Positions 3,497-26,742 of a stretch of 64,000 nt of DNA are shown piece after piece (within the stretch, counting starts at the first letter, position 1; each line of letters starts with the position of its first letter). This stretch comes from an uncultured delta proteobacterium. Lineage in GTDB: Bacteria; Myxococcota_A; Polyangia; Fen-1088. Position numbers and translations under genes: made by a program. Below the pieces are notes generated by a model. That model saw only the letters and a program-made list of their open reading frames with translations, had not been told where the DNA came from and did not search any database. The stretch lies in NCBI GenBank assembly GCA_963755125.1, contig CAVWIP010000018.1, positions 32,001-96,000 of the forward strand, written 5' to 3'.

Positions 3497-6400
3497 GTGT
3501 GTGCGGAGGGCCATCCCCAGACCTATGGCGATCGCTTTCGCGTCGAGGGCGAAGCGATCGAGGGCGGCATGGGCCTGGTCTATCGGGCCAAGGATCTGAA
3601 GACTGGCGAGCATGTCGCGCTGAAGGTGGTGGCTGAGCCGCAGGGTACGCAATCCCTGCGTTTCCAACAGGAGGCGATGGTGCTGGCCGACATCGCCCAT
3701 CCGGCTATCGTGCGCTACCTGGCCCACGGTTCCACTGCCCGGGGCGAGCAGTACATGGCGATGGAGTGGCTCGACGGCGAGACACTCGAGGACCGACTGG
3801 CACGCGGGCCGTTGCGCATCTCCGAGACCCTGCAACTCGGTCGCCGCGTGGCCGAGGCCCTGGCCGTGGCGCACAAGCACGGCGTCGTCCACCGCGACAT
3901 CAAGCCGGCCAACGTCTTTCTGCCTGCCGGCGATCCAGCTCAGGCCAAGGTGCTGGATTTCGGCATCGCGCGCCGGCTTTTCGATCCGCACCAGAACCTG
4001 CGCATCACCAGCGCCAACGCCGCCCTGGGCACGCCGCTCTACATGGCGCCCGAGCAGGCGCGCGGGGCCAGCACCGTCGACGGACGCGCTGACATCTTCG
4101 CCCTGGGCTGCGTGCTCTTCGAATGCCTCACCGGCCAGCCGCCCTTTGCCGGGACTTCGCCCACCGCGGTCATGGCCAAAATCTGCCTCGACGATTCGGT
4201 GGATCTGGCCCGCCAGCGGCCGGAAACCCCGGCTGATCTGGTCGCGCTGATCGCGCAAATGCTGGCCAAGGATCCAGCAGAACGTCGTGCAAAGGCCGCC
4301 GAGATCGCGCGCTCTCTCGGTGCCATCGCGGGGCAGTTCATCGGCCGCGACACTGCCAGCGATCTGGCAGCAGTCTACCAGGCCCGCACGCCGACCCCGT
4401 CTCTGGTCGCCACCGGCGAGCAACGAATCCTGGCGGCGATCCTGGTTTCGCGATCAAACCCCGGCGCAGCCGCGCCTGCCGCGCACGATCCCGGCCGGAC
4501 GGCTGACCTGGCCGGAATCCTGGCTGAGCGGCTTGCCGATCCCGAACTCGGCGAAGCCTCCCTCGCCGATTTGCGGAGCGCGATCGCGCCCCATGGCGCG
4601 CGCGTCGAGCGGCTGGGCGGCGGCTCGCTGGTCGTCGCGCTGACCGGCGAGCAGGGCACGCCGCTCGACCAGGCCACCCAGGCTGCGCGCTGTGCCCTGC
4701 GCCTCAAGGCTGCACTGCCTGACGCCAGCCTGGGCATCAGCACCAGCCGCGCCGACATGGCCGGCAAGCTTTCCTTGGGCGACGTCATCGACCAGGCCGG
4801 CCACCTGCTCGCCTTCACCCCGGCCGGCACCATCCACATCGACCCGCTCACCTCCCATCTGCTCGAAACCCGCTTCGAGATCCAGACTCTCCCTGACGGC
4901 GCCTCGCGCCTGCTGTTCGAAAAGGGAATTCGCGAAGCCCCGCGCACCCTGATGGGCAAGCCCGTTCCGTGCTTCGGCCGGGATCGCGAGGTCGGCCTGC
5001 TGGAAGCCCTGTGGGATGAAGCGTGCGACGAGCCCGCGGCGCGCGCGATGCTGATGACCTCGACCGCTGGCGGGGGCAAGTCTCGCGTGCGCCACGAGTT
5101 CTGCGACCGCATCCAGCGCCACGGCCAGCCCTTTACGCTTCTGGTTGGCCGAGGCGATCCCATGCGCGACGCCGCACCTTTCGCTTTACTGGGCCCTGCT
5201 CTGCTTGCAGCAGCGGGCATCACCGGCGGCGAGCCCGAGCCCGTGCAGCGCAAGCGCTTGACCGCGCACGCCTCGCGCTTCTTGCCGGCCAAGGACGCCC
5301 TGCGAATCGCGGCGTTCCTCGGTGAGATGGCCAACCTGCCCTTCCCCGACGAGGATCTGCTGCCCTTGCGTGCGGCCCGGCAGGACCCGCGCTTGATGGC
5401 CGACCAAATGCTCATGTCCTGGCTCGATTGGCTGGAGGCCGAGTGCAATCACCATCCGGTCTTGTTGGTGCTGGAAGACCTGCACTGGGGCGACACGCCC
5501 ACCGTGAACTTCGTGGACGCGGCCCTGCGCGTGCACAACGAGAAACCGTTCATGGTGCTGGCCCTGGCGCGCCCCGAGGTGGACCGGCGTTTTCCAGGAG
5601 TGTGGAAAGAGCGCACCCCGCAAAGGATCAACCTGGCGCCGCTGTCGCCGCGAACAAGTCAACGCATGATCGAGCATGTGGTGGGCAAGATTCCCGAGGA
5701 GAGCAGCCGCTGGATCGTGGATCGCGCGCAGGGCAATCCGTTCTACCTGGAAGAATTGCTGCGCGTGGTGGCCGAAGGAGGCAAGGTCGGCGACGACAGC
5801 AACCTGCCCGACACAGTGCTGGGCATGGTGCAGGCGCGTTTCGACATCTTTGGCCCCGACGCCAAGCTGGTCCTGCGCGCGGGCAGCATCTTTGGCCAAA
5901 CCTTTCGGCCCGCCGGGGTCAAGGCCCTGGTCAACGAAGACCGGCGCAAGGACGTGGACCGCTGGCTGGAGATCCTGACCAAGCGCGAGATTCTTTTTTC
6001 GCGGCCAGCGGCTGACCTGCGCGAGTACGCGTTTCGGCACGCGCTGTTGCGCCAGGCAGCCTACGAGATGCTGCCGCCAGCCGAAAAGAAACTGGGCCAC
6101 CTGCTGGCTGGCGAGTACCTGGAGCAGGCCGGCGAGCGGCAGGGCATCGTGCTGGCCGACCACTTCGAGCGCGCAGGCGAAAAGCCACGCGCCATTCGCT
6201 GGCTGGGCGTGGCCGCCCAGCAAGCGTTGGACGCAGACGACTTGGTGGAAACCCTCGCGCGCATCGAACGCGCCGTGAACCTGGGCGCCACTGGCGAAGC
6301 ATTGTGCGCGATGCGGGTCATCGAATCGCAGGCCAGGTACTGGCATGGCGAATATGTGGAAGCGGAGAGAGCGGCGCGGGAGGCGCTCGTCTCCAGTGAC

Positions 6401-7453
6401 GCGCGAACCAGATTGGGCGCTCTGAGCGCACTCTTCGACGGGCTCGGTCCACAGACCAAGTATGCCGAGATTGCCACGCTATTCCGGGACCTCAAACGAC
6501 CGGCAGCGCCTGAACTGTTGAATCCCTGGCTTGACTGCATGGTCAACGCGACCGCCTACCTCGCTGTCGGTGGCGACAGGGACGTGCGAGGGCGCACGCT
6601 TGCGCTCTTGGAAGAATCGAGAGAGCGGTTGGAGCCGATTCTCGTCGGACGGACCAAGACGATAAAGGCGCAATTGGCGCGCAACAAAGGCAAGCTGGCG
6701 GAAAGTGTCGCGGACTTCAGGCGTGCCGCAGATTACTACGAAAGCATCGGCCACCGGCGGGCCGCTTGTGAGGCTCTTGGAAACCTCGGCAATGCCCTAC
6801 TTGAGCTTGGCCACCTCGAAGAAGCTGAAGCGCGTATGCGACAGGTTCTGGCCACCGCAAACAAGATGGACCTTAAGTATATGGTTGGGGGTAGCCTTCA
6901 GCTCCTGACCAATATCCTCGCGTACCAAGGATCTCTTGCTGAGGCACGAACGATCGGCGCGCAAGCGATTGCCCTGACCAGGGGGCAGAACGATCGGCGG
7001 TTCCAGGGGTACGCGGAGGCATATCTCTCAGTGACCGAGTACTTGGCCGGAGACTACGCGCGTGCTGAGCACTACGCGAGCGCCGCAGTGACGACATGGG
7101 AGACCGCGCCTTCAGTCAGACCCTTCGCAATCGCCCTGCTTGCGCGAGCACTTCTCGCGCAAGGTCGCGAAGCCGAGGCTCTGGTCAGTGCCCGCGATGC
7201 CAACGCGCAACTTGAGAGCCTCGGCGTCGTCGATGACGGCGAGGCGACGATACGTTTGGCGCTTGCTGAGTGCCTGATCGCGACCAGAGACACGGCGCCA
7301 GCCCGGGAGGTTCTGGCGAAGGCCGCCAACCGCATTCTCGCCTCGGCAGAGGCTATTGAGGATCCCGCAAGTCGAGAGTCGTTCCTCACACGTATCCCCG
7401 AGCACCGCCGCATCCTGGAACTCGCCCGCGATCTCGCTGCGTCCAAGAGCTGA
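3497..7453 (+). CDS. Ser/Thr kinase - degenerate cyclase-like - STAND/AAA ATPase - TPR protein, paralogue 1
   Basis: Kinase motifs VALK, HRDIKPAN, DFG, GTPLYMAPE; Walker A AGGGKS; Walker B LLVLEDLHWGD; GNPFYLEEL; helical TPR-like C-terminus. Start moved to GTG 3497 by alignment with paralogue 3 (HPQTYGDRFR). Confidence 0.9.
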   Translation: MCAEGHPQTYGDRFRVEGEAIEGGMGLVYRAKDLKTGEHVALKVVAEPQGTQSLRFQQEAMVLADIAHPAIVRYLAHGSTARGEQYMAMEWLDGETLEDRLARGPLRISETLQLGRRVAEALAVAHKHGVVHRDIKPANVFLPAGDPAQAKVLDFGIARRLFDPHQNLRITSANAALGTPLYMAPEQARGASTVDGRADIFALGCVLFECLTGQPPFAGTSPTAVMAKICLDDSVDLARQRPETPADLVALIAQMLAKDPAERRAKAAEIARSLGAIAGQFIGRDTASDLAAVYQARTPTPSLVATGEQRILAAILVSRSNPGAAAPAAHDPGRTADLAGILAERLADPELGEASLADLRSAIAPHGARVERLGGGSLVVALTGEQGTPLDQATQAARCALRLKAALPDASLGISTSRADMAGKLSLGDVIDQAGHLLAFTPAGTIHIDPLTSHLLETRFEIQTLPDGASRLLFEKGIREAPRTLMGKPVPCFGRDREVGLLEALWDEACDEPAARAMLMTSTAGGGKSRVRHEFCDRIQRHGQPFTLLVGRGDPMRDAAPFALLGPALLAAAGITGGEPEPVQRKRLTAHASRFLPAKDALRIAAFLGEMANLPFPDEDLLPLRAARQDPRLMADQMLMSWLDWLEAECNHHPVLLVLEDLHWGDTPTVNFVDAALRVHNEKPFMVLALARPEVDRRFPGVWKERTPQRINLAPLSPRTSQRMIEHVVGKIPEESSRWIVDRAQGNPFYLEELLRVVAEGGKVGDDSNLPDTVLGMVQARFDIFGPDAKLVLRAGSIFGQTFRPAGVKALVNEDRRKDVDRWLEILTKREILFSRPAADLREYAFRHALLRQAAYEMLPPAEKKLGHLLAGEYLEQAGERQGIVLADHFERAGEKPRAIRWLGVAAQQALDADDLVETLARIERAVNLGATGEALCAMRVIESQARYWHGEYVEAERAAREALVSSDARTRLGALSALFDGLGPQTKYAEIATLFRDLKRPAAPELLNPWLDCMVNATAYLAVGGDRDVRGRTLALLEESRERLEPILVGRTKTIKAQLARNKGKLAESVADFRRAADYYESIGHRRAACEALGNLGNALLELGHLEEAEARMRQVLATANKMDLKYMVGGSLQLLTNILAYQGSLAEARTIGAQAIALTRGQNDRRFQGYAEAYLSVTEYLAGDYARAEHYASAAVTTWETAPSVRPFAIALLARALLAQGREAEALVSARDANAQLESLGVVDDGEATIRLALAECLIATRDTAPAREVLAKAANRILASAEAIEDPASRESFLTRIPEHRRILELARDLAASKS

Positions 7454-7493: not shown

Positions 7494-8864
7494 CTACCTT
7501 CGGTACTTGTCCATGTCGAAGCCGCCCTGCTGCACCCAACGCCACACCACTGCCCACTGGCGATCCAGCTCGCGCGCGACCTCCGCGATGTTCCCCTTGT
7601 GACGGTCGAGCAGAGCCTCGATCTCGGCCTTTTCCGGCCGGGCACGCGGCGGCCGGCGGCGCAGAACCCGATTCCGCTCGCCGCTCGCCACGCGCTCGCG
7701 CACAACGTGGGGCAGGTCTTCCAGCCGGATGGCGCGGCTTCCTTCGCTGCACAGCACCGCCTCGCGCACCACGCTTTCCAACCCGCGCACGTTCTCTGGC
7801 CAGTCGTGAAGACACAAGGCGAAGAACGCCGCGGTTTCCAGCGATCGCCGCTGACCAAGGAAATGCGCAGCCAGCGTGCCCACATCCTCGCGCCGCTCGC
7901 GCAGCGGCGGCAGCACCACCGGCTCGGCCCCGAAGCGCGCCACCAGATCGCGCCGCAGGCCAGGTGCCTGCGGGCTGGGCGTGAGGCTGGACGTGGCGCC
8001 GATCACGCGCACATCCAGCCGCCGCGCCTCCCGGCCACCCAGCGGCACGTACTCGTGCTCTTGCAGGAAGCGCAGCAGCTTGGCCTGCGCCGGCCCGGGC
8101 ATGTCGCCGATCTCGTCCAGAAACAGGGTTCCGCGCTCCGCCTCTTCGATGAGACCCGGTTTGCTGGCCGCGGCCTGCGAGTGCGCCCCGCGCGCGAAGC
8201 CGAAAAGCTCGCTCTCGACCAGCTCGGTGGGAAGCGCGGCGCAGTTCAATGCCACGAAACGGCCCGGCCGGCCGCTCGCCCGATGCACCGCCCGCGCATA
8301 CACTTCCTTGCCCACCCCCGTCTCGCCAGAAAGCAGGATCGCGTCCCCAGCACGAGCCAGCCGCCGTAGCCGCCTGATCTGCGCGGCCATCCCTCCCGAC
8401 AGGGTCGCCACGAGGCCGAATGGGTGGCCGAGATCCTCCTGAATGGCGGCCAGTGACTCCTCGGACAGCACGCGGACCAGGAGCGCGTGCCCACCCACGA
8501 ACAACAGCGTCCCGTCGTCAATCTTGGTCGGTCCGGAAATCATCCGTCCCTCGACCAGCGTGCCATTCTTGCTGCCCAGGTCCGCCACCTCGAACCCATC
8601 CGGCCGCGTGCGCGACACACGCGCGTGACGCCCCGAAATCCGAGGGTCACGCAGACAGCACGCTGCCACGCCCGCCTGGGCCCGCGGCAGACGTCCGATC
8701 TCGACCGCATGCTCGAAGGGAATCAGGCGGTCGCCACCCGCAATCCCGCCGCCCTCGGCTGCGTCCCCCACGACCACAAGGACCGCCCGGCTGTCGTCCA
8801 ATCGCGGCCGCACGGCAAGCTCCTCGGTGGTACTAGGTGGCTCGATTGGCTGGCGGCCGGACAT
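7494..8864 (-). CDS. FHA-domain sigma54 enhancer-binding protein (FHA-AAA+-HTH)
   Basis: FHA motifs IGR, ISGRHARV, DLGSKNGT; GETGVGKE, LFLDEIGDM, WPENVRGL, C-terminal HTH; GAFTGA loop reads GAHSQA. ATG 8864 preferred over the track start. Confidence 0.9.
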   Translation of the reverse strand: MSGRQPIEPPSTTEELAVRPRLDDSRAVLVVVGDAAEGGGIAGGDRLIPFEHAVEIGRLPRAQAGVAACCLRDPRISGRHARVSRTRPDGFEVADLGSKNGTLVEGRMISGPTKIDDGTLLFVGGHALLVRVLSEESLAAIQEDLGHPFGLVATLSGGMAAQIRRLRRLARAGDAILLSGETGVGKEVYARAVHRASGRPGRFVALNCAALPTELVESELFGFARGAHSQAAASKPGLIEEAERGTLFLDEIGDMPGPAQAKLLRFLQEHEYVPLGGREARRLDVRVIGATSSLTPSPQAPGLRRDLVARFGAEPVVLPPLRERREDVGTLAAHFLGQRRSLETAAFFALCLHDWPENVRGLESVVREAVLCSEGSRAIRLEDLPHVVRERVASGERNRVLRRRPPRARPEKAEIEALLDRHKGNIAEVARELDRQWAVVWRWVQQGGFDMDKYRR

Positions 8865-8957: not shown

Positions 8958-8977
8958 GGCGAGTCATATGACTCGCC
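8958..8977. promoter_or_regulatory. Perfect 20-bp palindrome GGCGAGTCATATGACTCGCC
   Basis: Read directly; an extra half-site TATGACTCGC lies at 8937-8946 and an identical 18-bp core recurs at 9352-9369. Confidence 0.7.
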
Positions 8978-9147
8978 GCCGGAATCCAGAACCGTACGCA
9001 CAACCGCGACTTGCTCAACTGGCCGCGATTTGCACGCCGGTCGCGCTCGACACGCCTCCGCTCGCGGACCGTCCACGTTGGGTTCGTAATTTGCCCCTGG
9101 TCCCTCCTTGCCTGCCGACCCCAAGCCACCAAAGGAGACCAACCACC

Positions 9148-9327
9148 ATGGGCACATTTGCCATCATCCCGGACGGCACCCAACTGCCGGCAGCCCTCTT
9201 CATTGACCTCGAACATGCGATGGACTGGGGCCTACGTACCTTCGGCACCGATTCATTCAGCATCCGCTGGATCGAGGTGGCCCTGCTCGCGCCAAACGAA
9301 GTGCATAGCCGGGTCGGCATCGCGTGA
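9148..9327 (+). CDS. Small hypothetical protein (59 aa)
   Basis: Strong RBS AAAGGAG upstream of ATG 9148; MGTFAIIPDGTQLPAALFIDLEHAMDWGLRTFGTDSFSIRWIEV... Confidence 0.7.
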   Translation: MGTFAIIPDGTQLPAALFIDLEHAMDWGLRTFGTDSFSIRWIEVALLAPNEVHSRVGIA

Positions 9328-9351
9328 GCCGTGCGAAGACACGGCAATCGC

Positions 9352-9369
9352 GCGAGTCATATGACTCGC
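9352..9369. promoter_or_regulatory. Perfect 18-bp palindrome GCGAGTCATATGACTCGC (second copy)
   Basis: Identical to the core at 8959-8976. Confidence 0.7.
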
Positions 9370-9561: not shown

Positions 9562-10053
9562 ATGGCCAGCCCAAGCGAGATCCTCACAGCCGCCACCGCC
9601 CGCTTCTCCGCGGACGCAGGTCTGAGTGCCCGCGAAAGCCAGATCCTCGAACTGGCCGCGCAGGGCTTCGTCGACAAGCAGATCTCGGACGAGTTAGGAC
9701 TAGCCTACACGACGGTCAAGTCCTATTGGTCCCGTATCTACTCCAAGGCGTCTGTCTCGAATCGGCAACTCGTCATCGCCAGGTTGATTACTTCTCTGGC
9801 GACGACGTCTGATCGCCAATCACTCGCAGAGATAGGTAGCAACACGAAAGGACCGCTCGTCCAGTCCGCCCGCAAGTGTCGTCGGCCGAATGTCATAAGA
9901 ATCGGGGGGACTCAAGCCAAAGCGCTAGCGGCAGAAGTGGCCCCTTCGTCGGCTATCCAGGTAGTCATTCAGCTGGGAGTCTTGACTTTGGTTTCCAACG
10001 CATACGCCGCGACGCTATGCGCACAAACAGGAGGTGTCCAATGGATGCAGTAG
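9562..10053 (+). CDS. LuxR/GerE-type HTH transcriptional regulator
   Basis: LSARESQILELAAQGFVDKQISDELGLAYTTVKSYWSRIYSK matches the LuxR HTH pattern; no sensor domain recognised. Confidence 0.75.
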   Translation: MASPSEILTAATARFSADAGLSARESQILELAAQGFVDKQISDELGLAYTTVKSYWSRIYSKASVSNRQLVIARLITSLATTSDRQSLAEIGSNTKGPLVQSARKCRRPNVIRIGGTQAKALAAEVAPSSAIQVVIQLGVLTLVSNAYAATLCAQTGGVQWMQ

Positions 10054-15341: not shown

Positions 15342-18300
15342 GTGAGGGACCAGGACCGGTTCGAGACCCAAGAGGAAACGCCCTTCGTGGTGTGTGAGCA
15401 GGGGCGTTTCGGTGAGCGCTTCCAGGTTGAATCGTTGGTGGGCAGCGGGGGCATGGGGATGGTTTTCCGTGGGCGCGACCTGTTGGATGGGCAGGCGGTG
15501 GCGCTCAAGGTTCTGCGCCGACAGGGACACAACGCCACTGAACGGTTGCTTCGCGAGGCAGAAGTGCTGGCTGCGCTCTCCCATCCGGCCGTCGTCCGCT
15601 ACGTGGGCCACGGTATGACCTTGCAGGGCGAGCCCTACCTGGCGATGGAGTGGCTCGACGGGGAGACGCTGGCCGATCGGCTTGCCCGTGGGGCCATCGG
15701 ATCAGTGGCAGCGGCGCGCCTGGGCAGCCGTGTGCTACTTGCGCTGGCCGTGGCACATTCGCACGGCATCGTCCACCGAGACATCAAGCCATCGAATCTG
15801 TTCTTGCCCGAGGCGGACCTGGGCCAGGCCAAGCTGCTCGACTTCGGCATTGCGCGCCGGACGCAAGACGATTGGCCGGTCACCAGGCCTGGGACGGCGC
15901 TGGGCACGGCCATGTACATGGCGCCTGAGCAGGCGCGCGACGGGGACGCGGTCGACGGGCGAGCGGACATCTTCTCGCTGGGCTGCGTGCTCTACGAGTG
16001 CGCGACTGGCGAGCCGCCTTGCCGCCAGGTGAGCCACGCTGGCAGAACTCCCGCCTGGTACGAAGCGGATCCCACGGGGCAATGCTGGGCCGTGGCACAG
16101 CCGTTGCGGGAGGTGCTAGCCCGCATGCTCGCCCTCGAGCCGGCAAAGAGGCCGGGCGACGTTGAGGAGCTGTCAGCCGAGCTGGCGTCGGTGGCAGACA
16201 CGTTGGTGGCGAATGGCCAGAGTGCAGAGCGCCGCCGCGAAACCCTGTCGGTGGACGAGCAGCGCGTCGTGGCCGTAGTGCTGGTCGCGGGCATGCGGCG
16301 AGAGAATCGCAATGACGCGGAGGAGGCGGCCCTACAAGAGTTGCTGGCGCCGCACCGAACGCAGGCCGAACGCATGGCCGATGGCACGATAAGGATCTCC
16401 TTCACAGGTCAAGCCACGCCGCTAGACCAGGCCACGCAAGCCGCGCGCTGTGCTTTGCGCCTGAAGGCCGCGCTGCTTGACGCTAGCCTGGGCATCAGCA
16501 CCAGCCGCACTGATCTGGCCGGCAAGCTTTCCCTGGGCGATGTCATCGACCAGGCCGGCCTTCTGCTCACCACCACCCCGGCCGGCACCATCCACATCGA
16601 CGGCCTCACCGCCCGCCTGCTGGAGACCCGCTTCGAGATCCAGGCGCTTGCCGACGGCACCTCACGCCTGCTGTTCGAAAAGGGAATTCGCGAAGCCCCG
16701 CGCACCCTGATGGGCAAGCCCGTCCCGTGCTTCGGCCGGGATCGCGAGGTCGACCTGCTGGAAGCCCTGTGGGATGAAGCGTGCGACGAGCCCGCCGCGC
16801 GCGCGATGTTGATGACCTAGGCCGCGGGCGGGGGCAAGTCGCGCGTGCGCCACGAGTTCTGCGACCGCATCCAGCGACGCAGTCGCGCCTTTGCGCTGCT
16901 GGTTGGTCGCGGCGATCCCATGCGCGACGCCGCGCCGTTTGCTTTGCTGGGCCAGGCCCTGCTCGCGGCCACAGGGATCACCGGCGCTGAGCCCGAGGCT
17001 GCACAGCGCAAGCGCCTGACCGCGCACGCCGCGCGCTTCCTGCCGGCCAAGGACGCCCTGCGGGTCGCGGCGTTCCTGGGCGAGATGGCCAACCTGCCTT
17101 TTCCCGACGAGGATCTGCCACCCTTGCGCGCGGCCCGGCAGGACCCGCGCTTGATGGCCGACCAGACGCTCATGGCCTGGCTCGACTGGCTGGAGGCGGA
17201 GTGCAATCACCATCCGGTGCTACTGGTGCTGGAGGATCTGAACTGGGGCGACGCGCCCAGCGTGAACTTTGTAGACGCGGCCCTGCGCGTACACAACGAG
17301 AAGCCGTTCATGGTGCTGGCCCTGGCGCGACCCGAGGTGGACCGGCGTTTTCCTAGCCTGTGGAAGGAACGCAACCCGCAGCGGATCAATCTGGCGCCGC
17401 TGTCGCCCAAGTCCACTCAGCGGATGATCGAGCATGTGGTGGGCAAGATCTCCGAAGAGAGCAGCCGCTGGATCGCGGAGCGGGCGCAGGGAAATCCTTT
17501 CTACCTTGAGGAACTGCTGCGCGTGGTGGCCGAAGGAGGCAAGGTCGGCGACGACAGCAACCTGCCCGACACGGTGCTGGGCATGGTGCAGGCCCGCTTC
17601 GACATCTTTGGCCCGGACGCCAAACTGGTCCTGCGCGCGGGCAGCATCTTTGGCCAGACCTTTCGGCCTGCCGGGGTCAAGGCCCTGGTCGACGAGGATC
17701 GGCGCAAGGACGTGGACCGCTGGCTGGAGATCCTGACCAAGCGAGAGATTCTGTTTTCGCGACCGACCGCGGACCTGCGCGAGTACGCGTTCCGGCACGC
17801 GCTGTTGCGCCAGGCGGCCTACGAGATGCTGCCGCCAACTGAAAGACGGCTGGGCCACCTGCTGGCTGGCGAGTACCTGGAGCAGGCTGGTGAGCGCCAG
17901 GGCATCGTGCTGGCCGACCACTTCGAGCGCGCAGGCGAAAAGCCACGCGCCATTCGCTGGCTGGGCGTGGCAGCCCAGCAGGCGCTGGACGCGGATGACT
18001 TGGCGGAAACCATCGCGCGCGTCGAGCGAGGCGTGAACCTGGGCGCCGCGGGCGAAGAATTGTATGCGATGCGAGTGATCGAGTCGGACGCGAAGTTCTG
18101 GCGAGGGCAATACCTGGAGGCGGAGCGAGCGGCTCGGGAGGCGCTCGCCTCCAGTGAGGCGCGGACCAGGCTGGACGCACTGAGCGCGCTCTTCGATGCA
18201 CTTGGCCCACAGATCAAGTACGACGAGATCGCCACGCTATTCCGCGGTCTCGAGCGGCCAGCAGCGCCTGAACTCTTGAATGCCTGGCTTGACTGTTTCG

Positions 18301-19211
18301 CGAACGCGGCTGGCTACCTCACCTACGCTGGCGACAACGAGATCCGTCACCAAACCTTGACGCTGCTGGAGGAGTCACGAGACCAGCTGGAGCCGATCAT
18401 GCTGGGACGGGCAGAGGGCCTGAGGTCGCACATCGCGAGAAGCCAGGGCAATCCAGCCGAATCTCTCGCGGCAGCCAAACGCGCCGCTGACTACTTCGAG
18501 AGCATCGGCCACCGCCGCGCCGCTTGCGAGGCTCTTGCGAACGTCGGCGTGAGCCTGCTCGAGCTCGGCCGACTGGAAGAAGCCGAGGCCTGCATCCAGC
18601 AGATCATGGCCACGGCGCGAAAGATGGACCTCAAGTACATGCTTGGGGGCAGCCTGCAAGCCCTGACCAACATCCTTGCCTACAAGGGATCTTTTGCCGA
18701 GGCACGCGCTGTCGGCCAGGAGGGCATCGCCGTCAACCGCACGCAGAATGATCGACGCTTCCAGGGATGCGCGGAGGCGTATCTCTCGGTGACGGAATAC
18801 CTGGCGGGCGATTACGCACGCGCCGAGCAGTACGCGCGCGCAGCCCTGACCACATGGGAGACCGTGCACGCAGTTTTGCCCTTCGCGCGCGCCTTGCTGG
18901 CTCGCGCCCTGCTGGCGCAGGGCCACAAGGCCGAGGCGCTGTCGACCGCGCGCGATGCGTATGCCGAGTTCGAGAGGATAGGCATCGTGGACGACGGCGA
19001 GGCGACGATACGATTGGCGCTTGCCGAGTGCCTGATCGCGGGCAGAGACATCGCGGCGGCCCAGGAGGTTCTAGACACGGCGGCTAGCCGAATTCTCGCG
19101 GCGGCAAAGGCCATTGACGATCCCGAAGTTCGCGAGTCGTTCCTGAACCGTATCCCCGAGCATCGCCGCATCCTTGAACTCGCGCACGAGTTGGCCACCG
19201 GGAAAGTTTGA
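15342..19211 (+). pseudogene. Kinase-STAND-TPR paralogue 2, interrupted by one in-frame TAG at 16818-16820
   Basis: ORFs 15342..16820 and 16845..19211 share a frame. LMT*AAGGGKS aligns with LMTSTAGGGKS and LMASAAGGGKS of paralogues 1 and 3 (TCG>TAG). Confidence 0.85.
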
Positions 19212-19223
19212 CCCCAGAACGCG

Positions 19224-19247
19224 AAACGCCGCCCGTAGGCAGCGTTT
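19224..19247 (-). terminator. Hairpin between convergent paralogue 2 and the peptide gene
   Basis: On the minus strand, AAACGCTGCC-TACG-GGCGGCGTTT forms a 10-bp stem with one G.U pair and a C(UACG)G tetraloop. The same pair is a C.A mismatch on the plus strand. Confidence 0.65.
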
Positions 19248-19268
19248 TCTGCGGTCGATATGTCGCGA

Positions 19269-19337
19269 CTACTTCGGCCAGTTGCCTCCGCCGCTGCGTA
19301 CTCGGGACTTCACTTTGATGCCAGATGTCTTCTTCAT
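19269..19337 (-). CDS. 22-aa peptide MKKTSGIKVKSRVRSGGGNWPK (candidate RiPP precursor or signalling peptide)
   Basis: Manual translation ATG 19337 to TAG 19269; RBS AAGGAG 8 nt upstream; downstream hairpin favours this strand; too short for the ORF track. Confidence 0.75.
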   Translation of the reverse strand: MKKTSGIKVKSRVRSGGGNWPK

Positions 19338-19412
19338 GGGGGGATCTCCTTGCGTGGGTTGAAATACTTCGAGGGACGGCAGCATGGTCGATCAAGGAGA
19401 CGCACCTTGCAA

Positions 19413-19568
19413 GTCAAATCTTTGACGATGTCGTCAGTTCATTGACAATGTTGCACTGCTGTCACGCAAATTCTTATCAATTTCAATCTGTTCACTGACA
19501 ACTACGGTCAGCCTATCAACATGTTTTCAACTGTAGTCAACTTCATGACTATCGGTCACATGAATGAC
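19413..19568. promoter_or_regulatory. AT-rich array of GTCA-N6-TGAC palindromic operator/UAS-like sites
   Basis: Perfect sites at 19413-19426, 19433-19446, 19536-19549 and 19555-19568; degenerate sites at 19486-19499 and 19507-19520. Confidence 0.75.
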
Positions 19569-19766
19569 TGTCTGCCATAATTATCCGTTTAATTACAGTT
19601 GGTTGCGATTACAGATATCCGAGCAAACTGCTGTTCGCGTTATCCAATTGCGCTACCGCCGCGCCCGAACTAGCAACCGAGCGTCGGCCCCTGTTCCCTC
19701 GCGAACCCTTGAGCGGCGCCGGCCAGATCCCTGTAACATTCCGCCCGTAGCACTCAGGCAGTATCC

Positions 19767-22700
19767 GTGGAGTCCCATCCCCAGACCTACGGCGATCGTT
19801 TTCGTATCGACGGCGATCCGATCGAGGGCGGCATGGGCCTGGTCTATCGCGCAGAGGATTTGAAGACCGGCGAGTATGTCGCGCTGAAGGTAGTGGCCGA
19901 GCCTCGGGGCACACAGTCCCTGCGCTTCCAGCAGGAAGCCGTCGTGCTGGCCGGCATCGCTCACCCGGCGATCGTGCGCTACCTGGCCCACGGCTCCACC
20001 GCCGACGGCGAGCAGTACATGGCGATGGAGTGGCTGGAGGGCGAAACCCTGGAGGACCGCGTGGCGCGCGGGCCGCTGCGCATCTCCGAGACCTTGCAGC
20101 TCGGTCGCCGCGTGGCCGAGGCCCTGGCCGTGGCGCACAGGCACGGCGTCGTCCACCGCGACATCAAGCCGGCCAACATTTTTCTGCCTGCCGGCGATCC
20201 ATGCCAGGCCAAGGTGCTGGACTTCGGCATCGCGCGCCGCCTGTTCGATCCGGAGCAACGCATGCGCATCACCAGCGTCGGCGCCGCGCTGGGCACTCCG
20301 CTGTACATGGCGCCCGAGCAGGCACGCGGGGCCAGCAACGTCGACGGACGCGCCGACATCTTCGCCCTGGGCTGCGTGCTCTTCGAATGCCTCACCGGCC
20401 AGCCACCCTTTGCCGGCACTTCGCCCACCGCGATCATGGCCAAGATCTGCCTGGACGATCCGGTGGATCTGGCCCGCCGACGGCCGGAAACTCCGGCCGA
20501 TCTGGTCGCGCTGATCGCGTGCATGCTGGCCAAGAATCCCGACCAGCGTCCGGCGAAGGCCGACGAGGTCGCGCGCGCGCTGGCTGCCACTGCGGCCGAG
20601 TTCGTCGACCGCGACAGCGACCTTGCCGCAATCTACCGGACCCGCACGCCGACTCCGGCGCTGGTCGCCACTGGCGAGCAGCGTATCCTGGCCGCCATCC
20701 TGGTTTCGCGACCGCGCTCCGGCGCAGTCACGCGTGTCGTACACGATCCGGGCCGGACCGCTGACCTGGCCGGTATCCTGTCTGAACGACTCGCCAACCC
20801 CGAACTGGGCGAAGCGGGCCTGGGAGATCTGCAGAGTGCCATCGCGCCCCTCGGTGCGCGCGTCGAGCGACTGGGTGGCGGTTCGCTGGTCATTGCCCTG
20901 ACCGGCGAGCAGCAGGGCACGCCGCTCGACCAAGCCACGCAGGCCGCGCGCTGTGCCCTGCGCCTGAAGGCCGCGCTGCCTGACGCCAGCCTGGGCATCA
21001 GCACCAGCCGCACTGACATGGCCGGCAAGCTTTCCCTGGGCGACGTCATCGATCAGGCCGGGCACCTGCTCGCCACCACCCCGGCCGGCACCATCCACAT
21101 CGACAATGTCACCGCCCATCTGCTGGAAAACCGCTTCGAGATCCAGGCGCTGGCCGACGGCACCTCGCGCCTGCTGTTCGAGAAGGGAATTCGCGAAGCC
21201 CCGCGCACCCTGATGGGCAAGGCCGTTCCGTGCTTCGGCCGGGATCGCGAAGTCGACCTTCTGGAAGCTCTGTGGGATGAAGCGTGCGACGAGCCCGCCG
21301 CGCGCGTGATGCTGATGGCCTCGGCAGCGGGCGGGGGCAAGTCGCGCGTGCGCCACGAATTCTGCGACCGCATCCAGCGTCGCAGTCGCGCGTATGCGAT
21401 GCTGGTTGGTCGCGGCGATCCCATGCGCGACGCCGCGCCTTTTGCCTTGCTGGGCTCCGCGTTGCTCGCGGCCGCTGGCATCACCGGCGCTGAGCCCGAG
21501 GCTGTGCAGCGCAAGCGCCTGACTGCGCACGCCTCGCGCTTCTTGCCCGCCAAGGATGCCTTGCGAATCGCGGCGTTTCTGGGCGAGATGGCCAACCTGC
21601 CTTTCCCCGACGAGGATCTGCCACCCCTGCGCGCGGCCCGGCAGGATCCGCGCTTGATGGCCGACCAGACGCTCATGGCCTGGCTCGACTGGCTGGAAGC
21701 CGAGTGCAGTCATCATCCGGTACTGCTGGTGCTGGAGGATCTGCACTGGGGCGACTCGCCCAGCGTGAACTTCGTGGACGCGGCCCTGCGCGTACACAAC
21801 GAGAAGCCGTTCATGGTGCTGGCCCTGGCGCGGCCCGAGGTGGACCGGCGCTTTCCGGGCCTGTGGAAAGAACGCAACCCGCAGCGGATCAACCTGACGC
21901 CGCTGTCGCCCAAGTCAACCCAACGCATGATCGAGCATGTGGTGGGCAAGATTTCCGAAGAAAGCGCGCGCTGGATCGCGGAGCGGGCACAGGGCAATCC
22001 GTTTTACCTTGAGGAATTGCTGCGCGTGGTGGCCGACGGGGGCAAGGTCGGCGACGACAGCAACCTGCCCGACACGGTGCTGGGCATGGTGCAGGCGCGC
22101 TTCGACATCTTTGGCCCGGACGCCAAGCTGGTCCTGCGCGCGGGCAGCATCTTTGGCCAGACCTTTCGGCCCGTAGGGGTCAAGGCCCTGGTCGACGAGG
22201 ATCGGCGCAAGGACGTGGACCGCTGGCTGGAGATCCTGACCAAGCGAGAGATTCTGTTTTCGCGACCGACCGCGGATCTGCGCGAGTACGCGTTCCGCCA
22301 CGCGCTGTTGCGCCAGGCAGCCTACGAGATGCTGCCACCGACGGAGAAACGGCTGGGCCACCTGCTGGCTGGCGAGTACCTGGAGCAGGCTGGTGAGCGC
22401 CAGGGCATCGTGCTGGCCGACCACTTCGAGCGCGCCGGTGAGAAGCCACGCGCGATTCGCTGGCTGGGCGTGGCAGCCCAGCAGGCGCTCGACGCGGATG
22501 ACTTGGCGGAAGCCGTCGGCCGCGTCGAACGTGCCGTGAATCTGGGCGCTGCGGGTGAGGAATTGTGTTCGATGCGGGTGATCGAGTCGCAGGCGAGGTT
22601 CTGGCGAGGGCAATACCTGGAGGCGGAGCAAGCGGCTCGGGAGGCGCTCGCCTCCAGTGAGGACCGGACCAAACTGGACGCCCTGAGCGCGCTCTTCGAT

Positions 22701-23714
22701 GCGCTTGGCCCACAGGTCAAGTACGACGAGATCGCCGCGCTATTCCGCGACCTCGAGCGACCAGAAGCACCTGAATTGCTGAATGCCTGGCTCGACTGCT
22801 TCGTGAGCGCGGCTGGTTACCTCACCTACGCTGGCGACAACGAGATCCGTCACCAAACCTTGACGCTGCTGGAGGAGTCACGAGACCAGCTGGAGCCGAT
22901 CATGCTGGGACGGGCAGAGGGCCTGAGGTCGCACATCGCGAGAAGCCAGGGCAATCCAGCCGAATCTCTCGCGGCAGCCAAACGCGCCGCTGACTACTTC
23001 GAGAGCATCGGCCACCGGCGCGCCGCTTGCGAGGCTCTTGCGAACGTCGGCGTGAGCCTGCTCGAGCTCGGCCGACTGGAAGAAGCCGAGGCCTGCATCC
23101 AGCAGATCATGGCCACGGCGCGAAAGATGGACCTCAAGTACATGCTTGGGGGCAGCCTGCAAGCCCTGACCAACATCCTTGCCTACAAGGGATCTTTTGC
23201 CGAGGCACGCGCTGTCGGCCAGGAGGGCATCGCCGTCAACCGCACGCAGAATGATCGACGCTTCCAGGGATGCGCGGAGGCGTATCTCTCGGTGACGGAA
23301 TACCTGGCGGGCGATTACGCACGCGCCGAGCAGTACGCGCGCGCAGCCCTGACCACATGGGAGACCGTGCACGCAGTTTTGCCCTTCGCGCGCGCCTTAC
23401 TGGCTCGCGCCCTGCTGGCGCAGGGCCACAAGGCCGAGGCGCTGTCGACCGCGCGCGATGCGTATGCCGAGTTCGAGAGGATAGGCATCGTGGACGACGG
23501 CGAGGCAACCATCCGTCTGGCGTTGGCCGAGTGTTTGCTCGTTTCCGGCGATCGCCTGGCCGCGAAGGAGGTTTTGGCCGCGGCGACAAGACAGGTCCAC
23601 GCCTGGGCAGCCACCATCGAAGATTTCGCCGGTCGCCAGGCGTACCTGACCCGCATCCCGGAGCACCGCCGCATCCTGGAACTTGCACAAGAACTGGCCG
23701 GGGACAAGAGCTGA
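19767..23714 (+). CDS. Kinase-STAND-TPR paralogue 3
   Basis: Same motif set as paralogue 1 (HRDIKPAN, DFG, MAPE, AGGGKS, LEDLHWGD, GNPFYLEEL); intact 1315-aa ORF. Confidence 0.9.
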   Translation: MESHPQTYGDRFRIDGDPIEGGMGLVYRAEDLKTGEYVALKVVAEPRGTQSLRFQQEAVVLAGIAHPAIVRYLAHGSTADGEQYMAMEWLEGETLEDRVARGPLRISETLQLGRRVAEALAVAHRHGVVHRDIKPANIFLPAGDPCQAKVLDFGIARRLFDPEQRMRITSVGAALGTPLYMAPEQARGASNVDGRADIFALGCVLFECLTGQPPFAGTSPTAIMAKICLDDPVDLARRRPETPADLVALIACMLAKNPDQRPAKADEVARALAATAAEFVDRDSDLAAIYRTRTPTPALVATGEQRILAAILVSRPRSGAVTRVVHDPGRTADLAGILSERLANPELGEAGLGDLQSAIAPLGARVERLGGGSLVIALTGEQQGTPLDQATQAARCALRLKAALPDASLGISTSRTDMAGKLSLGDVIDQAGHLLATTPAGTIHIDNVTAHLLENRFEIQALADGTSRLLFEKGIREAPRTLMGKAVPCFGRDREVDLLEALWDEACDEPAARVMLMASAAGGGKSRVRHEFCDRIQRRSRAYAMLVGRGDPMRDAAPFALLGSALLAAAGITGAEPEAVQRKRLTAHASRFLPAKDALRIAAFLGEMANLPFPDEDLPPLRAARQDPRLMADQTLMAWLDWLEAECSHHPVLLVLEDLHWGDSPSVNFVDAALRVHNEKPFMVLALARPEVDRRFPGLWKERNPQRINLTPLSPKSTQRMIEHVVGKISEESARWIAERAQGNPFYLEELLRVVADGGKVGDDSNLPDTVLGMVQARFDIFGPDAKLVLRAGSIFGQTFRPVGVKALVDEDRRKDVDRWLEILTKREILFSRPTADLREYAFRHALLRQAAYEMLPPTEKRLGHLLAGEYLEQAGERQGIVLADHFERAGEKPRAIRWLGVAAQQALDADDLAEAVGRVERAVNLGAAGEELCSMRVIESQARFWRGQYLEAEQAAREALASSEDRTKLDALSALFDALGPQVKYDEIAALFRDLERPEAPELLNAWLDCFVSAAGYLTYAGDNEIRHQTLTLLEESRDQLEPIMLGRAEGLRSHIARSQGNPAESLAAAKRAADYFESIGHRRAACEALANVGVSLLELGRLEEAEACIQQIMATARKMDLKYMLGGSLQALTNILAYKGSFAEARAVGQEGIAVNRTQNDRRFQGCAEAYLSVTEYLAGDYARAEQYARAALTTWETVHAVLPFARALLARALLAQGHKAEALSTARDAYAEFERIGIVDDGEATIRLALAECLLVSGDRLAAKEVLAAATRQVHAWAATIEDFAGRQAYLTRIPEHRRILELAQELAGDKS

Positions 23715-23900
23715 CCCCGGAACGCAGAACGCAGCCGGCCGGCCCCCGCTTGTCTCGGTTGCTGGCGGTGCTATTGTGCGTCCAGACATTCCAGTGTCGC
23801 CGCGGATCTCAACCACAGCGAAGACGGGACGCGCGATTCCGCCTTGCAAAAACGCGTCAGTGGCAGGTTGCCCTGATGCCTCCGCTGCCGTGGGCGGGAC

Positions 23901-25922
23901 ATGGGCCAGAGGATAGGCGCGACCAATCCGCGCGGGCGTTTCTGCGGAAGCGCTTCCTTGGCCTCAGACGCAGTGGATCTCCTCCTGCTCAACGCCTCGA
24001 ATCTGCCTGACAAGACCGTATACCCCTACGCGTTCGTGCAAGTCTCGGCGCTGGCACGCCACTTCGGTCTCAAAGTCGCACGCTTCGACTTTGTCCGACT
24101 CAATCGACAACAGATCCGCTACCACCTGACTGATCTCATCCGACGGCGTCGGCCACGCATGATCGGTTTGCACCTGCGGCAGGCGGACTCGGTCGTGGAA
24201 TCGGACTATCCGCCGCCACCTTTCGGCGATCCGTCAAAGTACTACCTGCCTGTCGATGACACCCGCGCGCTGGTGGGCGAAATCCGCCGGCTGACCCAAG
24301 CCCCCATCGTGGCCGGCGGCTTTGGCTTCTCTTCCCACCCGCTGCAAACCGCCGCACGCCTTCAGGTGGATTTCGGGATCCAGGGCGAACCTGACGGATT
24401 CTTCGCGCGTTTCGCTGACGTGCTGGCCCGCCGCCATCTGGACCAAGTGCCCAACTTGGTCTACCGCCGGGGTCGCACCTTCCACGCCAACCCGCGCGTC
24501 TTCTATCCCCCGTTCGATGGACCGGAATATACGGATGAGATGGTGGACGAGCTGATTCGTTTCTACGGGGAGCGTGCACTGCTTGAGGGCACCATGGATA
24601 CCGTTGCGGTGGAGATCGCGCGCGGCTGTCCCTTTCGCTGCTACTTCTGTAACGAGCCGGCGGTGAAGGGCCGCCACGTTCAGTACCGGAACTGGTCCGC
24701 GGTGGAGGCAGATCTGGCGACGCTGGCATCCCGCGGGATCCACAACGTGTGGTTCGTCTGCTCTGAGATCAACATCCACCCCCGACGGGCGCGGACGATT
24801 GCCCGTCGGATGCGCGCCCTGAACGCTGGCCGCGACGGGAACACGCGCGTTCGCTGGCGCTCATACAGCATCCCGCGCATGGATCCGGCCCACCTGCGCG
24901 CCATGCTGTCGGCCGGCTTCCAGCCGGGCTGGAACGACTTCCCGTCCTTCGACGACACCAACTTGGCTCGTTGTCAGGTGCCTTTCCGAACGCGCTCCGC
25001 CCTCGACTACTACCGGCGCTACCTCGACTGGGCCGACCGACAGCCCGACCCGCCCGCTGACCGTCAAACCTTCTCTCTCTTTCTTGGCAACGCCTTTGCC
25101 ACGGCACGCACCATCAGCACCACCTTGCGCCGGGTCGACGCCCTCAGCCTGCAGGCCAGACACGAACAGGCAGCGGTCAGCACCGCCACGCGCGTCTTTC
25201 GCGTCGACGGCAGGTACACCTGCGGCGACGAGCGCTCGCTGTCTACGCTCGGACGTGGCGGCAGGATCCCACTCGACGTTGTCGGCCCCACCTTTCATTT
25301 CGCACCAGCTTTGGTCCGCCAGCTAGGCAGTGAGCAGGCAGTGCGCGATTTTCTCGCCTACGTGGGCTCGACCTTCCTGTCGAGCGAGCATCTGCACAAA
25401 CGCAACTGGCCCGAGTTTCTCTCCGCGAACGTCTCTTCTCCCGGTCTGCTAGCCCTCGTGCGCACCGCCCGGCAGGCACGAACGGTGGGACCGGTGCAGG
25501 TGGACGCCGACGATGAGCAACTGGCCTATGAGATCCGACGCTCGCTCGCGACGCTGTGGAAGAAACTCGATGAGACGGCAGTGCGACGCCTCTTCTCGCC
25601 CGGAGCGGAGAAGAGACTCTACGGTCATGTGGTCAATGGGGTGCTGATCCAACTCATGCGGCCCAACGCCCGCGCCTTTGCTCGCATCCTTCGCACCCTG
25701 CGCATTCCACACGATCGGGATGGCTTCTACGACTTGTCCGAATACCGCGTGGCCCGCATCTTGTACCACCATTCTGACAGCAACGAGGATCTCGTGGCCG
25801 AGATGTGTCGCTTGCACGATTTGCGGGTGGACTCGCTCGACCTCCTGCAACTACAGCACTTTCTGTTCGAGAACAACGTGCAGATCCGGCCCGAGTACCG
25901 CCCGCTGCTGTTCGCCAAGTAG
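23901..25922 (+). CDS. Radical SAM protein with cobalamin-binding-like N-terminal region and long C-terminal extension
   Basis: CxxxCxxC in ARGCPFRCYFC; N-terminal IVAGGFGFS and GIQGEPD segments resemble B12-binding radical SAMs. Start may be GTG near 23973. Confidence 0.8.
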   Translation: MGQRIGATNPRGRFCGSASLASDAVDLLLLNASNLPDKTVYPYAFVQVSALARHFGLKVARFDFVRLNRQQIRYHLTDLIRRRRPRMIGLHLRQADSVVESDYPPPPFGDPSKYYLPVDDTRALVGEIRRLTQAPIVAGGFGFSSHPLQTAARLQVDFGIQGEPDGFFARFADVLARRHLDQVPNLVYRRGRTFHANPRVFYPPFDGPEYTDEMVDELIRFYGERALLEGTMDTVAVEIARGCPFRCYFCNEPAVKGRHVQYRNWSAVEADLATLASRGIHNVWFVCSEINIHPRRARTIARRMRALNAGRDGNTRVRWRSYSIPRMDPAHLRAMLSAGFQPGWNDFPSFDDTNLARCQVPFRTRSALDYYRRYLDWADRQPDPPADRQTFSLFLGNAFATARTISTTLRRVDALSLQARHEQAAVSTATRVFRVDGRYTCGDERSLSTLGRGGRIPLDVVGPTFHFAPALVRQLGSEQAVRDFLAYVGSTFLSSEHLHKRNWPEFLSANVSSPGLLALVRTARQARTVGPVQVDADDEQLAYEIRRSLATLWKKLDETAVRRLFSPGAEKRLYGHVVNGVLIQLMRPNARAFARILRTLRIPHDRDGFYDLSEYRVARILYHHSDSNEDLVAEMCRLHDLRVDSLDLLQLQHFLFENNVQIRPEYRPLLFAK

Positions 25923-26041: not shown

Positions 26042-26092
26042 AGAGGCACCGCCCGGCTCGCAACCTGACCAGAAACATGGTTTAATTGGTTG

Positions 26093-26356
26093 ATGAAGCC
26101 GGTCAACATCCAGCAGGCAAAGACCCACCTTTCGCGCTACCTAAAACGCGTCAAGAATGGGGAATCACTCGTGATTTGTGACCGGAATGTCCCTGTGGCG
26201 GAGCTCCGACCGCTGACTGAACCCGCCAAGCCAGGGCGACCCTTGGGGGCTCTGCGTGGTGCTGTCTTGCACATGGCGGACACCTTCAACGAGCCGCTGC
26301 CAGCAGAGGACTTGGCCGCATTCACGGCTGGCGATGTGGGGGACGAGAAGGCGTGA
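26093..26356 (+). CDS. Phd/YefM-family antitoxin
   Basis: VNIQQAKTHLSRYLKRVKNGESLVICDRNVPVAEL. Confidence 0.9.
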   Translation: MKPVNIQQAKTHLSRYLKRVKNGESLVICDRNVPVAELRPLTEPAKPGRPLGALRGAVLHMADTFNEPLPAEDLAAFTAGDVGDEKA

Positions 26357-26742
26357 GGCTCCTGCTCGACACTTGCACTTTTCTGTGGGCAGCGGATGCG
26401 CCCGAGAAGCTGAGCGAGCCGGCGCGTGAAGCCCTTGCTGCGCCGGAGAACGCCGTTTTGTTATCACCGATTTCTGCTTGGGAGATTCAGCTCAAGTCTC
26501 GCAAGCTGGGACAACTCCGGCTCGATCGTCCGCCCGGCGCCTTCGTGCGCGAGGCCATGGCGCGGCTCGGGCTGGAAGAAGCGCCTCTCGGCTGCCAGGC
26601 GCTCGCGTTCCTCGAGCGGCTGCCGGACTTTCATGCCGATCCCTTTGACCGTGCGCTCATCTGCCAGGCCATCCACGAAGACTGCGTGTTGGTGACACCT
26701 GACTCGCACATTCAGCGTTACCCGGTGCGGGTTCTCTGGTAG
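26353..26742 (+). CDS. vapC: PIN-domain VapC toxin
   Basis: LLLDTCTFLW, SAWEI, HADPFDRALICQA; 4-bp overlap with the antitoxin. Confidence 0.9.
   Translation: MRLLLDTCTFLWAADAPEKLSEPAREALAAPENAVLLSPISAWEIQLKSRKLGQLRLDRPPGAFVREAMARLGLEEAPLGCQALAFLERLPDFHADPFDRALICQAIHEDCVLVTPDSHIQRYPVRVLW

Follow-up and report, generated by a model that had tools for sequence, protein, structure and literature searches.

What is the purpose of a gene for a 22-residue peptide that lies between the genes of two large kinases, behind an array of palindromes? The question is raised by a locus in a 64,000-nucleotide stretch of DNA (hereafter the window; C18:32001-96000, contig CAVWIP010000018.1 of assembly GCA_963755125.1) from the 4.5-Mb, 98% complete genome of an uncultured delta proteobacterium. 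A preliminary description of the window grouped the peptide gene, its GTCA-N6-TGAC palindromes (boxes), genes for proteins that combine a kinase, a STAND ATPase and TPRs (K1, K2 and K3), a radical SAM gene and an FHA-domain activator into one system, and gave the central gene order as K2 > < peptide [boxes] K3 > radical SAM >. This order was confirmed. The peptide, the boxes and the kinases form a conserved module, but the radical SAM enzyme and the FHA activator did not prove to be core parts of it. On balance, we read the module as one of secreted-peptide signalling, in which an exported short peptide would be sensed by Hanks-type kinases with TPR receptor regions.

The peptide (MKKTSGIKVKSRVRSGGGNWPK, encoded at 19337-19269 on the minus strand) is a true, conserved gene. 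With a profile built from five alleles it was identified in 11/11 genomes of the host genus and in seven of the 13 genomes of sister genus g8, at one copy per genome with the exception of G078. Comparison of 22 distinct peptide loci (the window, three metagenome contigs and 18 genome loci) showed that the leader is near-constant and that the final six residues vary, as in the tails GGNWPK, AGRWPR, GARFPR, ACHWPK, VFRWPR, GGHWPH and GGVTPR. The leader is under purifying selection and the tail is hypervariable: among nine genes of the genus, pairwise differences were 102 synonymous versus 8 non-synonymous in leader codons 2-16, and 50 versus 99 in tail codons 17-22. Double-glycine leaders have Gly at position -2 and Gly, Ala or Ser at position -1 of the cleavage site; in the peptide, Gly16 was invariant and the residue after it was Gly in 17, Ala in three and Val in one of the 21 complete tails. 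The 22-mer has no hydrophobic core in its sequence and no family match in Pfam or NCBIfam. RNA contigs of two studies covered the region, and since these show neither level nor strand they were not used.

A kinase-STAND-TPR gene was located tail-to-tail behind the peptide gene in 19/22 loci. Two of the remaining loci are on contigs that end within 261 bp, and in the third, from strain L110, the kinase has been lost. A second kinase gene was found on the promoter side of the peptide in seven of the 22 loci. The minimal locus (G001, L223) consists of one kinase gene and the peptide gene; it occupies the same position, flanked by a DUF4015 gene and the sdh operon, at which varied insertions accumulate. 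Neither a conserved modifying enzyme nor a small immunity gene was found near the peptide in the peptide loci and wider-family loci surveyed.

Exact boxes were identified upstream of the peptide gene at 19413, 19433, 19536 and 19555. The whole window contains five exact boxes versus 0.82 expected, a number reached in 0/100 shuffles, and a matrix scan of the 4.5-Mb genome returned the two pairs of this locus as its only strong pairs (scores of 44.8 and 37.1, with the next at 19.6). At least two boxes, allowing up to one mismatch, were present upstream in 22/22 loci, at about -85/-105 from the ATG in all of them and often also at -206/-225. In every locus the TTG of a -35 element directly followed the proximal box, with a weak -10 element 17-18 bp further, although a generic consensus scan did not call this predicted promoter in the window. 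The proximal box is at the position at which class II activators bind. Exact box pairs occurred in 19 of the 89 genomes of the host's family versus 0 with a reversed-pattern control, and in genus g3 the same boxes and TTG precede peptides of a second, NHN type. The box-pair pattern also had nine matches in 400 other genomes of the phylum; the eight inspected were mostly intragenic with no peptide called alongside, and we treated these outside pairs as chance because reversed-pattern controls also matched. A sigma54 promoter at the peptide gene was rejected, as no -24/-12 elements were seen by eye in the 22 upstream regions (no formal scan was made).

At E<=0.02 a broader profile identified relatives of the peptide in 62/89 family genomes, of which three were marginal, with E>0.01. 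Many of these relatives are tandem multi-cassette precursors, in which every cassette comprises a basic leader with AGG at its end, then a short core and NHNR. The peptides of genus g3 end in an NHN motif and lie beside kinase-STAND genes, and one precursor combines a WP-type and an NHN-type core. Judged from these sequences, the 22-residue peptide is the one-unit form of a double-glycine, often multi-cassette, precursor family. In 46 loci of this wider family, 29 of 43 peptide open reading frames (ORFs), called by a pattern with some peptides missed and two frames double-counted, touched a kinase gene, 19 of them tail-to-tail. The kinases were mostly kinase-TPR proteins of 850-930 residues, and 13 of 26 long kinase-TPR neighbours had a membrane-like segment between the kinase and the TPRs. 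In all, the genes beside this one precursor family encode receptors of two unrelated architectures and also a third sensor domain. The single-unit profile matched 13 of 301 genomes of the class, 12 of which belong to the family. In genus g9 (L421, L422), which has no exporter match, repeat precursors lie near YcaO and TfuA genes, possibly as a thioamidated variant.

That no dedicated transporter adjoins the peptide, as had been noted earlier, holds within the window, but the genome has a single C39-peptidase exporter operon on another contig (adaptor, C39-ABC and second ABC at C17:285949-292003). Its C39 domain scored over the cut-off, with Cys and His motifs visible, and its best NCBIfam match was the NHLP bacteriocin exporter, at 157 bits and below the cut-off. 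An orthologue was present in 62/89 family genomes, and a C39-peptidase ABC exporter pair lay inside 11 of the 46 loci. A hand tally over the 89 genomes gave 54 with both peptide and exporter, 19 with neither, eight with peptide only and eight with exporter only; the Fisher p of 1.7e-7 for this co-occurrence is overstated because kin are not independent. Within genera the tallies were seven both, five neither and one exporter only in g8, and one both and four neither in g16. Outside the family the exporter was found in 15 of 300 other genomes of the phylum, and one of 14 exporter loci examined there, in another class, comprised a repeat precursor, an FHA regulator and a kinase.

The K proteins begin with a Pkinase domain, which in K1 is followed by a degenerate cyclase-like segment, the STAND ATPase and the TPRs, with no transmembrane segment. 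The cyclase-like segment alone had no Pfam match, and its name rests on the alignment to TIGR03903. K1 adjoins a DUF4015 gene, the syntenic site of the peptide-adjacent kinase in relatives. Both K1 and K3 scored over the cut-off for AAA_16 and have TPRs and intact Walker A/B motifs (GGGKS and LEDLHW). In K2 the reading frame is broken by a TAG codon (16818-16820) where the Walker A motif (the P-loop) begins; the stop base was also present in contigs of run X2, possibly the source sample, and run X1 had only a K3-type contig there. The K2 kinase domain has about 60% DNA identity to those of K1 and K3, whereas a central TPR block of about 600 nucleotides is 100% identical to that of K3, a pattern that on sequence grounds is recent gene conversion into a dead gene. 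K2 is dead in this strain, and the candidate receptors are K1 and K3. The TPR region is the least conserved large domain (54% versus 67-70% for the STAND and winged-helix domains).

Structure prediction of the TPR region with GNWPK had been called for by the preliminary description. Co-folding of K3 residues 870-1315 with the 22-mer scored 0.56, against 0.03 for the best control, with runs sharing at least 42% of contacts; the predicted local distance difference test (pLDDT) score of the partner was low, at 42-43, and a partner below 30 residues lies outside the calibration. In that calibration the mark was reached by 51/78 solved pairs and 2/108 mismatched pairs, and scores at or below 0.60 were those of 5/78 solved pairs and all four passing mismatches. 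The model lends weak support to binding of the peptide by the K3 TPR region.

In the reading that we favour, the peptide gene would be transcribed from an activator-dependent, sigma70-type promoter, the two box pairs and spacing of which are observed, and its basic leader would be cut at the double-glycine site to give GNWPK. The tail of 5-6 residues would be exported by the C39-peptidase ABC exporter, of which the genome has one, and its HlyD adaptor, and then sensed by the TPR region of neighbouring Hanks-type kinases, presumably membrane-bound kinase-TPR proteins in other family genera and cytoplasmic kinase-STAND-TPR proteins in this strain. From what is known of these protein families, ligand binding may switch the STAND ATPase and the kinase, which could phosphorylate FHA-bearing or other regulators. 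A peptide-signalling circuit had been proposed at the outset. What stands of it is a constant leader with a variable tail, a co-occurring exporter encoded in trans and the weak TPR-binding model; the radical SAM enzyme, an obligatory FHA regulator and allele matching do not.

Several observations weigh against this reading. K1-K3 lack a membrane segment and are cytoplasmic, so that the tail would have to be re-imported across two membranes, a step for which RRNPP systems use an oligopeptide permease; one SBP_bac_5 gene was found in the genome. The kinase family is present in 73/89 genomes, which is broader than the peptide link, and many copies have no peptide beside them. The host exporter is unlinked to the peptide, with no precursor beside it and no box pair near. 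All five genomes of genus g9 have peptides and no exporter match, and account for five of the eight peptide-only genomes, and a genome-wide search of 10 exporter-bearing genomes outside the family found no convincing peptide match. No regulator that binds the boxes was identified. TPR identity and tail identity did not co-vary (Spearman 0.12, permutation p 0.30, 10 pairs of genus g1). Of two 99%-identical strains, L109 has the same peptide and a K2 TPR region that is only 73% identical, and L110 has an identical K3 TPR region and a different tail, with the tail-to-tail kinase lost and a peptide-promoter cassette of 74% DNA identity. The suggested self/non-self circuit, understood as strict lock-and-key, was tested for and not found, with no allele matching and with alleles mixed between near-identical strains. 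The fast recombination of the locus fits recognition or conflict and proves neither. In G009 (L021:17700-18000), what is left of the 3' portions of a TPR region and of the FHA gene lies between the boxes and the radical SAM gene, the trace of a deleted kinase/FHA pair.

The FHA regulator had been described as a sigma54 activator on which a third kinase paralogue, K1, converges. The convergence and the FHA domain are as described, but the sigma54 label is doubtful because GAHSQA replaces the sigma54-contact loop GAFTGA in this protein and its orthologues. The regulator was near the peptide in eight of 22 loci, two of them partial, and is a frequent but dispensable neighbour. Its HTH was not found intact in 10/10 other peptide-bearing genomes tested, several of them incomplete; these include G079, which is 99% complete and has four perfect boxes. 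It was rejected as the obligatory binder of the boxes on this basis and on that of its own, different palindrome (CGAGTCATATGACTCG). This palindrome has only two copies in the genome, is also found upstream of the FHA orthologues in L268 and L273, and is a candidate site of the FHA regulator itself; it was upstream in three of the 10 FHA loci examined. A literature search on FHA enhancer proteins with all terms combined found no paper.

Three other proteins are, from their sequences, candidate box binders. One is a conserved REC-AAA+-HTH protein encoded at C1:42060-43550, the HTH helix of which we take to resemble that of FleQ. At the threshold used, this FleQ-like protein was found in 86/89 family genomes, including genomes without boxes, and its presence is therefore not discriminating for box binding. 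The others are encoded by the two Crp-family genes of the genome that scored over the cut-off, without an MrpC assignment. The 14-bp box agrees with the FleQ box of Pseudomonas, GTCAAT-N2-ATTGAC, which according to PMC10723142 is bound by a Fis-type HTH dimer that can act at sigma70 promoters, and with the core of the MrpC site, TGTYN8RAC in PMC4320627; phosphorylation of MrpC is treated in bioRxiv 737593. Common to these sites and ours are a 14-bp GTCA-N6-TGAC palindrome, an AT-rich centre and multiple copies at a sigma70-like promoter, whereas few of our boxes (12%) have the 5' T of the MrpC consensus. Two exact boxes 34 bp apart also lie upstream of a FliA/WhiG sigma gene (G000:C18:260993-261040, L487), a possible second target of the same regulator. 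In genus g8 (L313-L320), eight genomes have a second conserved box pair that overlaps a sensor kinase gene at its end and lies upstream of the gene for another Ser/Thr kinase.

The radical SAM enzyme is of the cobalamin-dependent type and fell below every NCBIfam cut-off. The named records nearest to it are Myxococcales metagenome-assembled genomes, which makes a myxobacterial host most likely. Its closest solved relative by profile was TsrM (E 5.7e-35), and its fold model (pLDDT 93.7) matched TsrM with a Z score of 29.2 and a root mean square deviation of 3.2 over 431 aligned residues, the next entry family scoring 24.4. In TsrM an Arg lies under the cobalamin (Arg69) and a Glu at the unique iron (Glu273), and the enzyme acts on free Trp (PMC8992657). 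Sequence alignment to 6WTE placed R69 and E265 of our enzyme on these residues, and both counterparts were invariant in 57 homologues; the Glu is weak evidence alone because this position is common in the superfamily (same source). The fold, the CX3CX2C motif, the two residues and the naming of ESM Atlas neighbours are shared with the TsrM Trp C2-methyltransferase (6WTE/6WTF, TIGR04428), from which the protein differs in its 20% structural identity, its 83 bits against a TIGR04428 cut-off of 500 and an extra helical C-terminal region. Sequence and model indicate that it is probably an indole C-methyltransferase-like enzyme.

Whether peptide and enzyme form a minimal locus for a ribosomally synthesized and post-translationally modified peptide (RiPP), as proposed in the preliminary description, was addressed by gene neighbourhoods, and in nearly all homologues the proposal failed. 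The radical SAM gene adjoins the peptide only in a clade of at least 83% identity, and 0/62 other loci (some overlapping) carry the peptide. Among 21 genomes with box-type peptides, the gene was full-length in five, a fragment in one and adjacent to the peptide in two, with no full-length copy in 16. The nearest homologues outside the clade (54-62%) stand alone among unrelated neighbours. We rejected the enzyme as a core maturase, as its co-occurrence with the precursor is not conserved, and it is probably a later insertion and a bystander. The enzyme family (about 650 residues, unnamed) is patchily distributed over Myxococcota, Streptomyces, Pseudomonas, cyanobacteria and Asgard archaea. In two Acidobacteriota records (L058, L059) a distant homologue is divergent from a kinase-STAND gene, with no family peptide found, and in L043:4429-17741 and L117:2640-9607 a member of the family is part of a likely RiPP cluster with an 80-87-residue double-glycine-type precursor, a carbamoyltransferase and an acetyltransferase-like gene, and in L043 also a C39 exporter.

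These data bear on three other explanations of the peptide. It could be an exported effector, bacteriocin-like or a bioactive short cationic peptide, with the kinases regulating its production by another ligand or giving immunity. A double-glycine leader with a C39 exporter is the standard bacteriocin route, and such a role would suit the best match of the exporter, the higher dose given by multi-cassette genes, tails that are variable and often cationic with Trp, and the lack of tail-TPR allele matching. We nonetheless consider it unlikely, as unmodified products of 5-9 residues would be very short for killing, no conserved modifying or small immunity gene was found in the loci surveyed, and the one precursor family has receptors of two unrelated designs, and a third sensor domain as well, encoded beside it. 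It is quite improbable that the peptide acts inside the cell that makes it, cut or uncut, either inhibiting the cytoplasmic kinase-STAND proteins by feedback or serving as their substrate, its Ser/Thr-rich basic leader being a phospho-acceptor or pseudo-substrate. K1-K3 do lack a membrane segment, the leader, rich in S, T, K and R, is more conserved than the tail, and the exporter is unlinked in genera g1 and g8, but the exporter tracks the peptide within g8 and g16 and is physically linked in 11/46 loci.

We give little credence to the third explanation, that the radical SAM enzyme methylates the Trp of the peptide (+14 Da), at least in this clade, and so creates a private signal variant. All five peptide-bearing genomes with a full-length enzyme have a Trp in the tail, the nearest solved relative is a Trp C2-methyltransferase with the same invariant Arg and Glu, and the distant subgroup of L043 and L117 lies in precursor-containing clusters. 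Against it are the neighbourhood counts given above, the isolation of the nearest outside homologues, the free Trp on which TsrM acts and the tendency of the DUF4015-sdh site to gather varied insertions.

The features of the locus are collected in Table 1. The S8 protease described earlier was found at about 10-12.2 kb; the protease and a kelch protein were rejected as module parts, as a search of 26 peptide loci gave matches in the window only. A Phd/YefM antitoxin and PIN-domain toxin pair (26090-26742) lies directly 3' of the radical SAM gene and is not at this site in G009. A conserved 78-residue protein of no known family (9091-9327) is encoded divergently from the FHA gene, between the two palindromes of that gene, and a small stand-alone LuxR-type HTH protein at about 9562-10053.

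Table 1. Features of the peptide locus and its surroundings (window coordinates).
Feature	Position	Strand	Remarks
K1 kinase-STAND-TPR gene	3506..7453	+	intact; start codon uncertain (3497 or 3506)
FHA - AAA+ - Fis-type HTH regulator	7494..8864	-	optional module partner
Palindrome CGAGTCATATGACTCG, two copies 5' of FHA gene	8960..9368	.	differs from GTCA-N6-TGAC box
K2 kinase-STAND-TPR gene, tail-to-tail with peptide	15342..19211	+	TAG-interrupted, chimeric
22-residue precursor peptide gene	19269..19337	-	predicted mature GNWPK or GGNWPK; cleavage site inferred
Peptide gene ribosome-binding site AAGGAG	19346..19351	-	
Predicted sigma70-type promoter of peptide gene	19384..19412	-	-35 beginning TTG, weak -10
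Proximal GTCA-N6-TGAC box pair	19413..19446	.	about -85/-105 from ATG
Distal GTCA-N6-TGAC box pair	19536..19568	.	about -206/-225 from ATG
K3 kinase-STAND-TPR gene, divergent from peptide promoter	19767..23714	+	intact; candidate receptor
TsrM-like cobalamin-dependent radical-SAM-fold methyltransferase	23973..25922	+	ORF start at 23901 possible; lineage-specific neighbour, non-core

The module of peptide, kinase-TPR protein and exporter is real, conserved and apparently undescribed. In the literature searched, outside which lay most subscription journals and supplements, we found no description of its motifs or of this combination, and one may exist. To our knowledge, myxobacterial Ser/Thr kinases and STAND proteins are very many and their ligands almost all unknown. 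The loci provide candidate ligands of 5-9 residues that can be synthesized, each with a receptor gene beside it and an exporter, and with candidates named, direct in vitro tests of whether a ligand activates a bacterial NLR-like kinase become possible. Also brought to light is a large repeat-precursor family, the members of which gene callers miss or leave without a name. Tentatively, and with some doubt, we suggest that bacterial peptide communication has, besides the histidine-kinase and RRNPP types, a third class, in which double-glycine, often multi-cassette pro-pheromones would be read by eukaryote-like Ser/Thr receptor kinases, including NLR-like kinase-STAND-TPR proteins with a self-made peptide ligand, and the fast shuffling of tails and TPR blocks would serve strain recognition in myxobacteria. 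Such a class would parallel, in a bacterium, the peptide/receptor-kinase pairs of plants and the multi-copy pheromone precursors of yeast.

Among known systems, those of the ComCDE type (ComC/ComAB/ComDE, BlpC and bacteriocin inducer peptides) employ double-glycine pheromones of Firmicutes. They share with the module a short Gly-Gly-type precursor, a C39-peptidase ABC exporter with adaptor (here in an unlinked operon), a variable mature peptide and a boxed promoter. In place of a linked histidine kinase and response regulator, the gene beside the peptide encodes a Hanks Ser/Thr kinase (in 19/22 and 29/43 cases), which bears TPRs and may or may not include STAND, and the leader is basic rather than acidic, precursors can be multi-cassette and the host is diderm. 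The STAND plan of effector, P-loop NTPase and superstructure repeats with intact Walker A/B is found in K1 and K3 and is broken in K2. TIGR03903 (TOMM system kinase/cyclase fusion), described as a family found close to peptide precursor genes, was the best NCBIfam match of K1 and K3 (317 and 307 bits, far below the cut-off of 705.75) and spans their kinase, cyclase-like and STAND parts, but there is no cyclodehydratase among the window genes at 1-34 kb and the precursor is of a different type.

The RRNPP sensors, such as Rap-Phr, PlcR-PapR and ComR-ComS, resemble the module in having a cytoplasmic protein with C-terminal TPRs encoded beside a small peptide gene, a product of about five residues and variable tails. 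They differ in their N-terminal HTH or phosphatase helical bundle and Sec-exported precursor; the peptide described here has no Sec-type hydrophobic signal, and a kinase joined to a STAND ATPase, in a protein of 1,300 residues, serves as the effector, with the two genes tail-to-tail. By analogy with both groups, the module may be regarded as combining pheromone export of the double-glycine kind with TPR sensing of the RRNPP kind, and it is a member of neither group.

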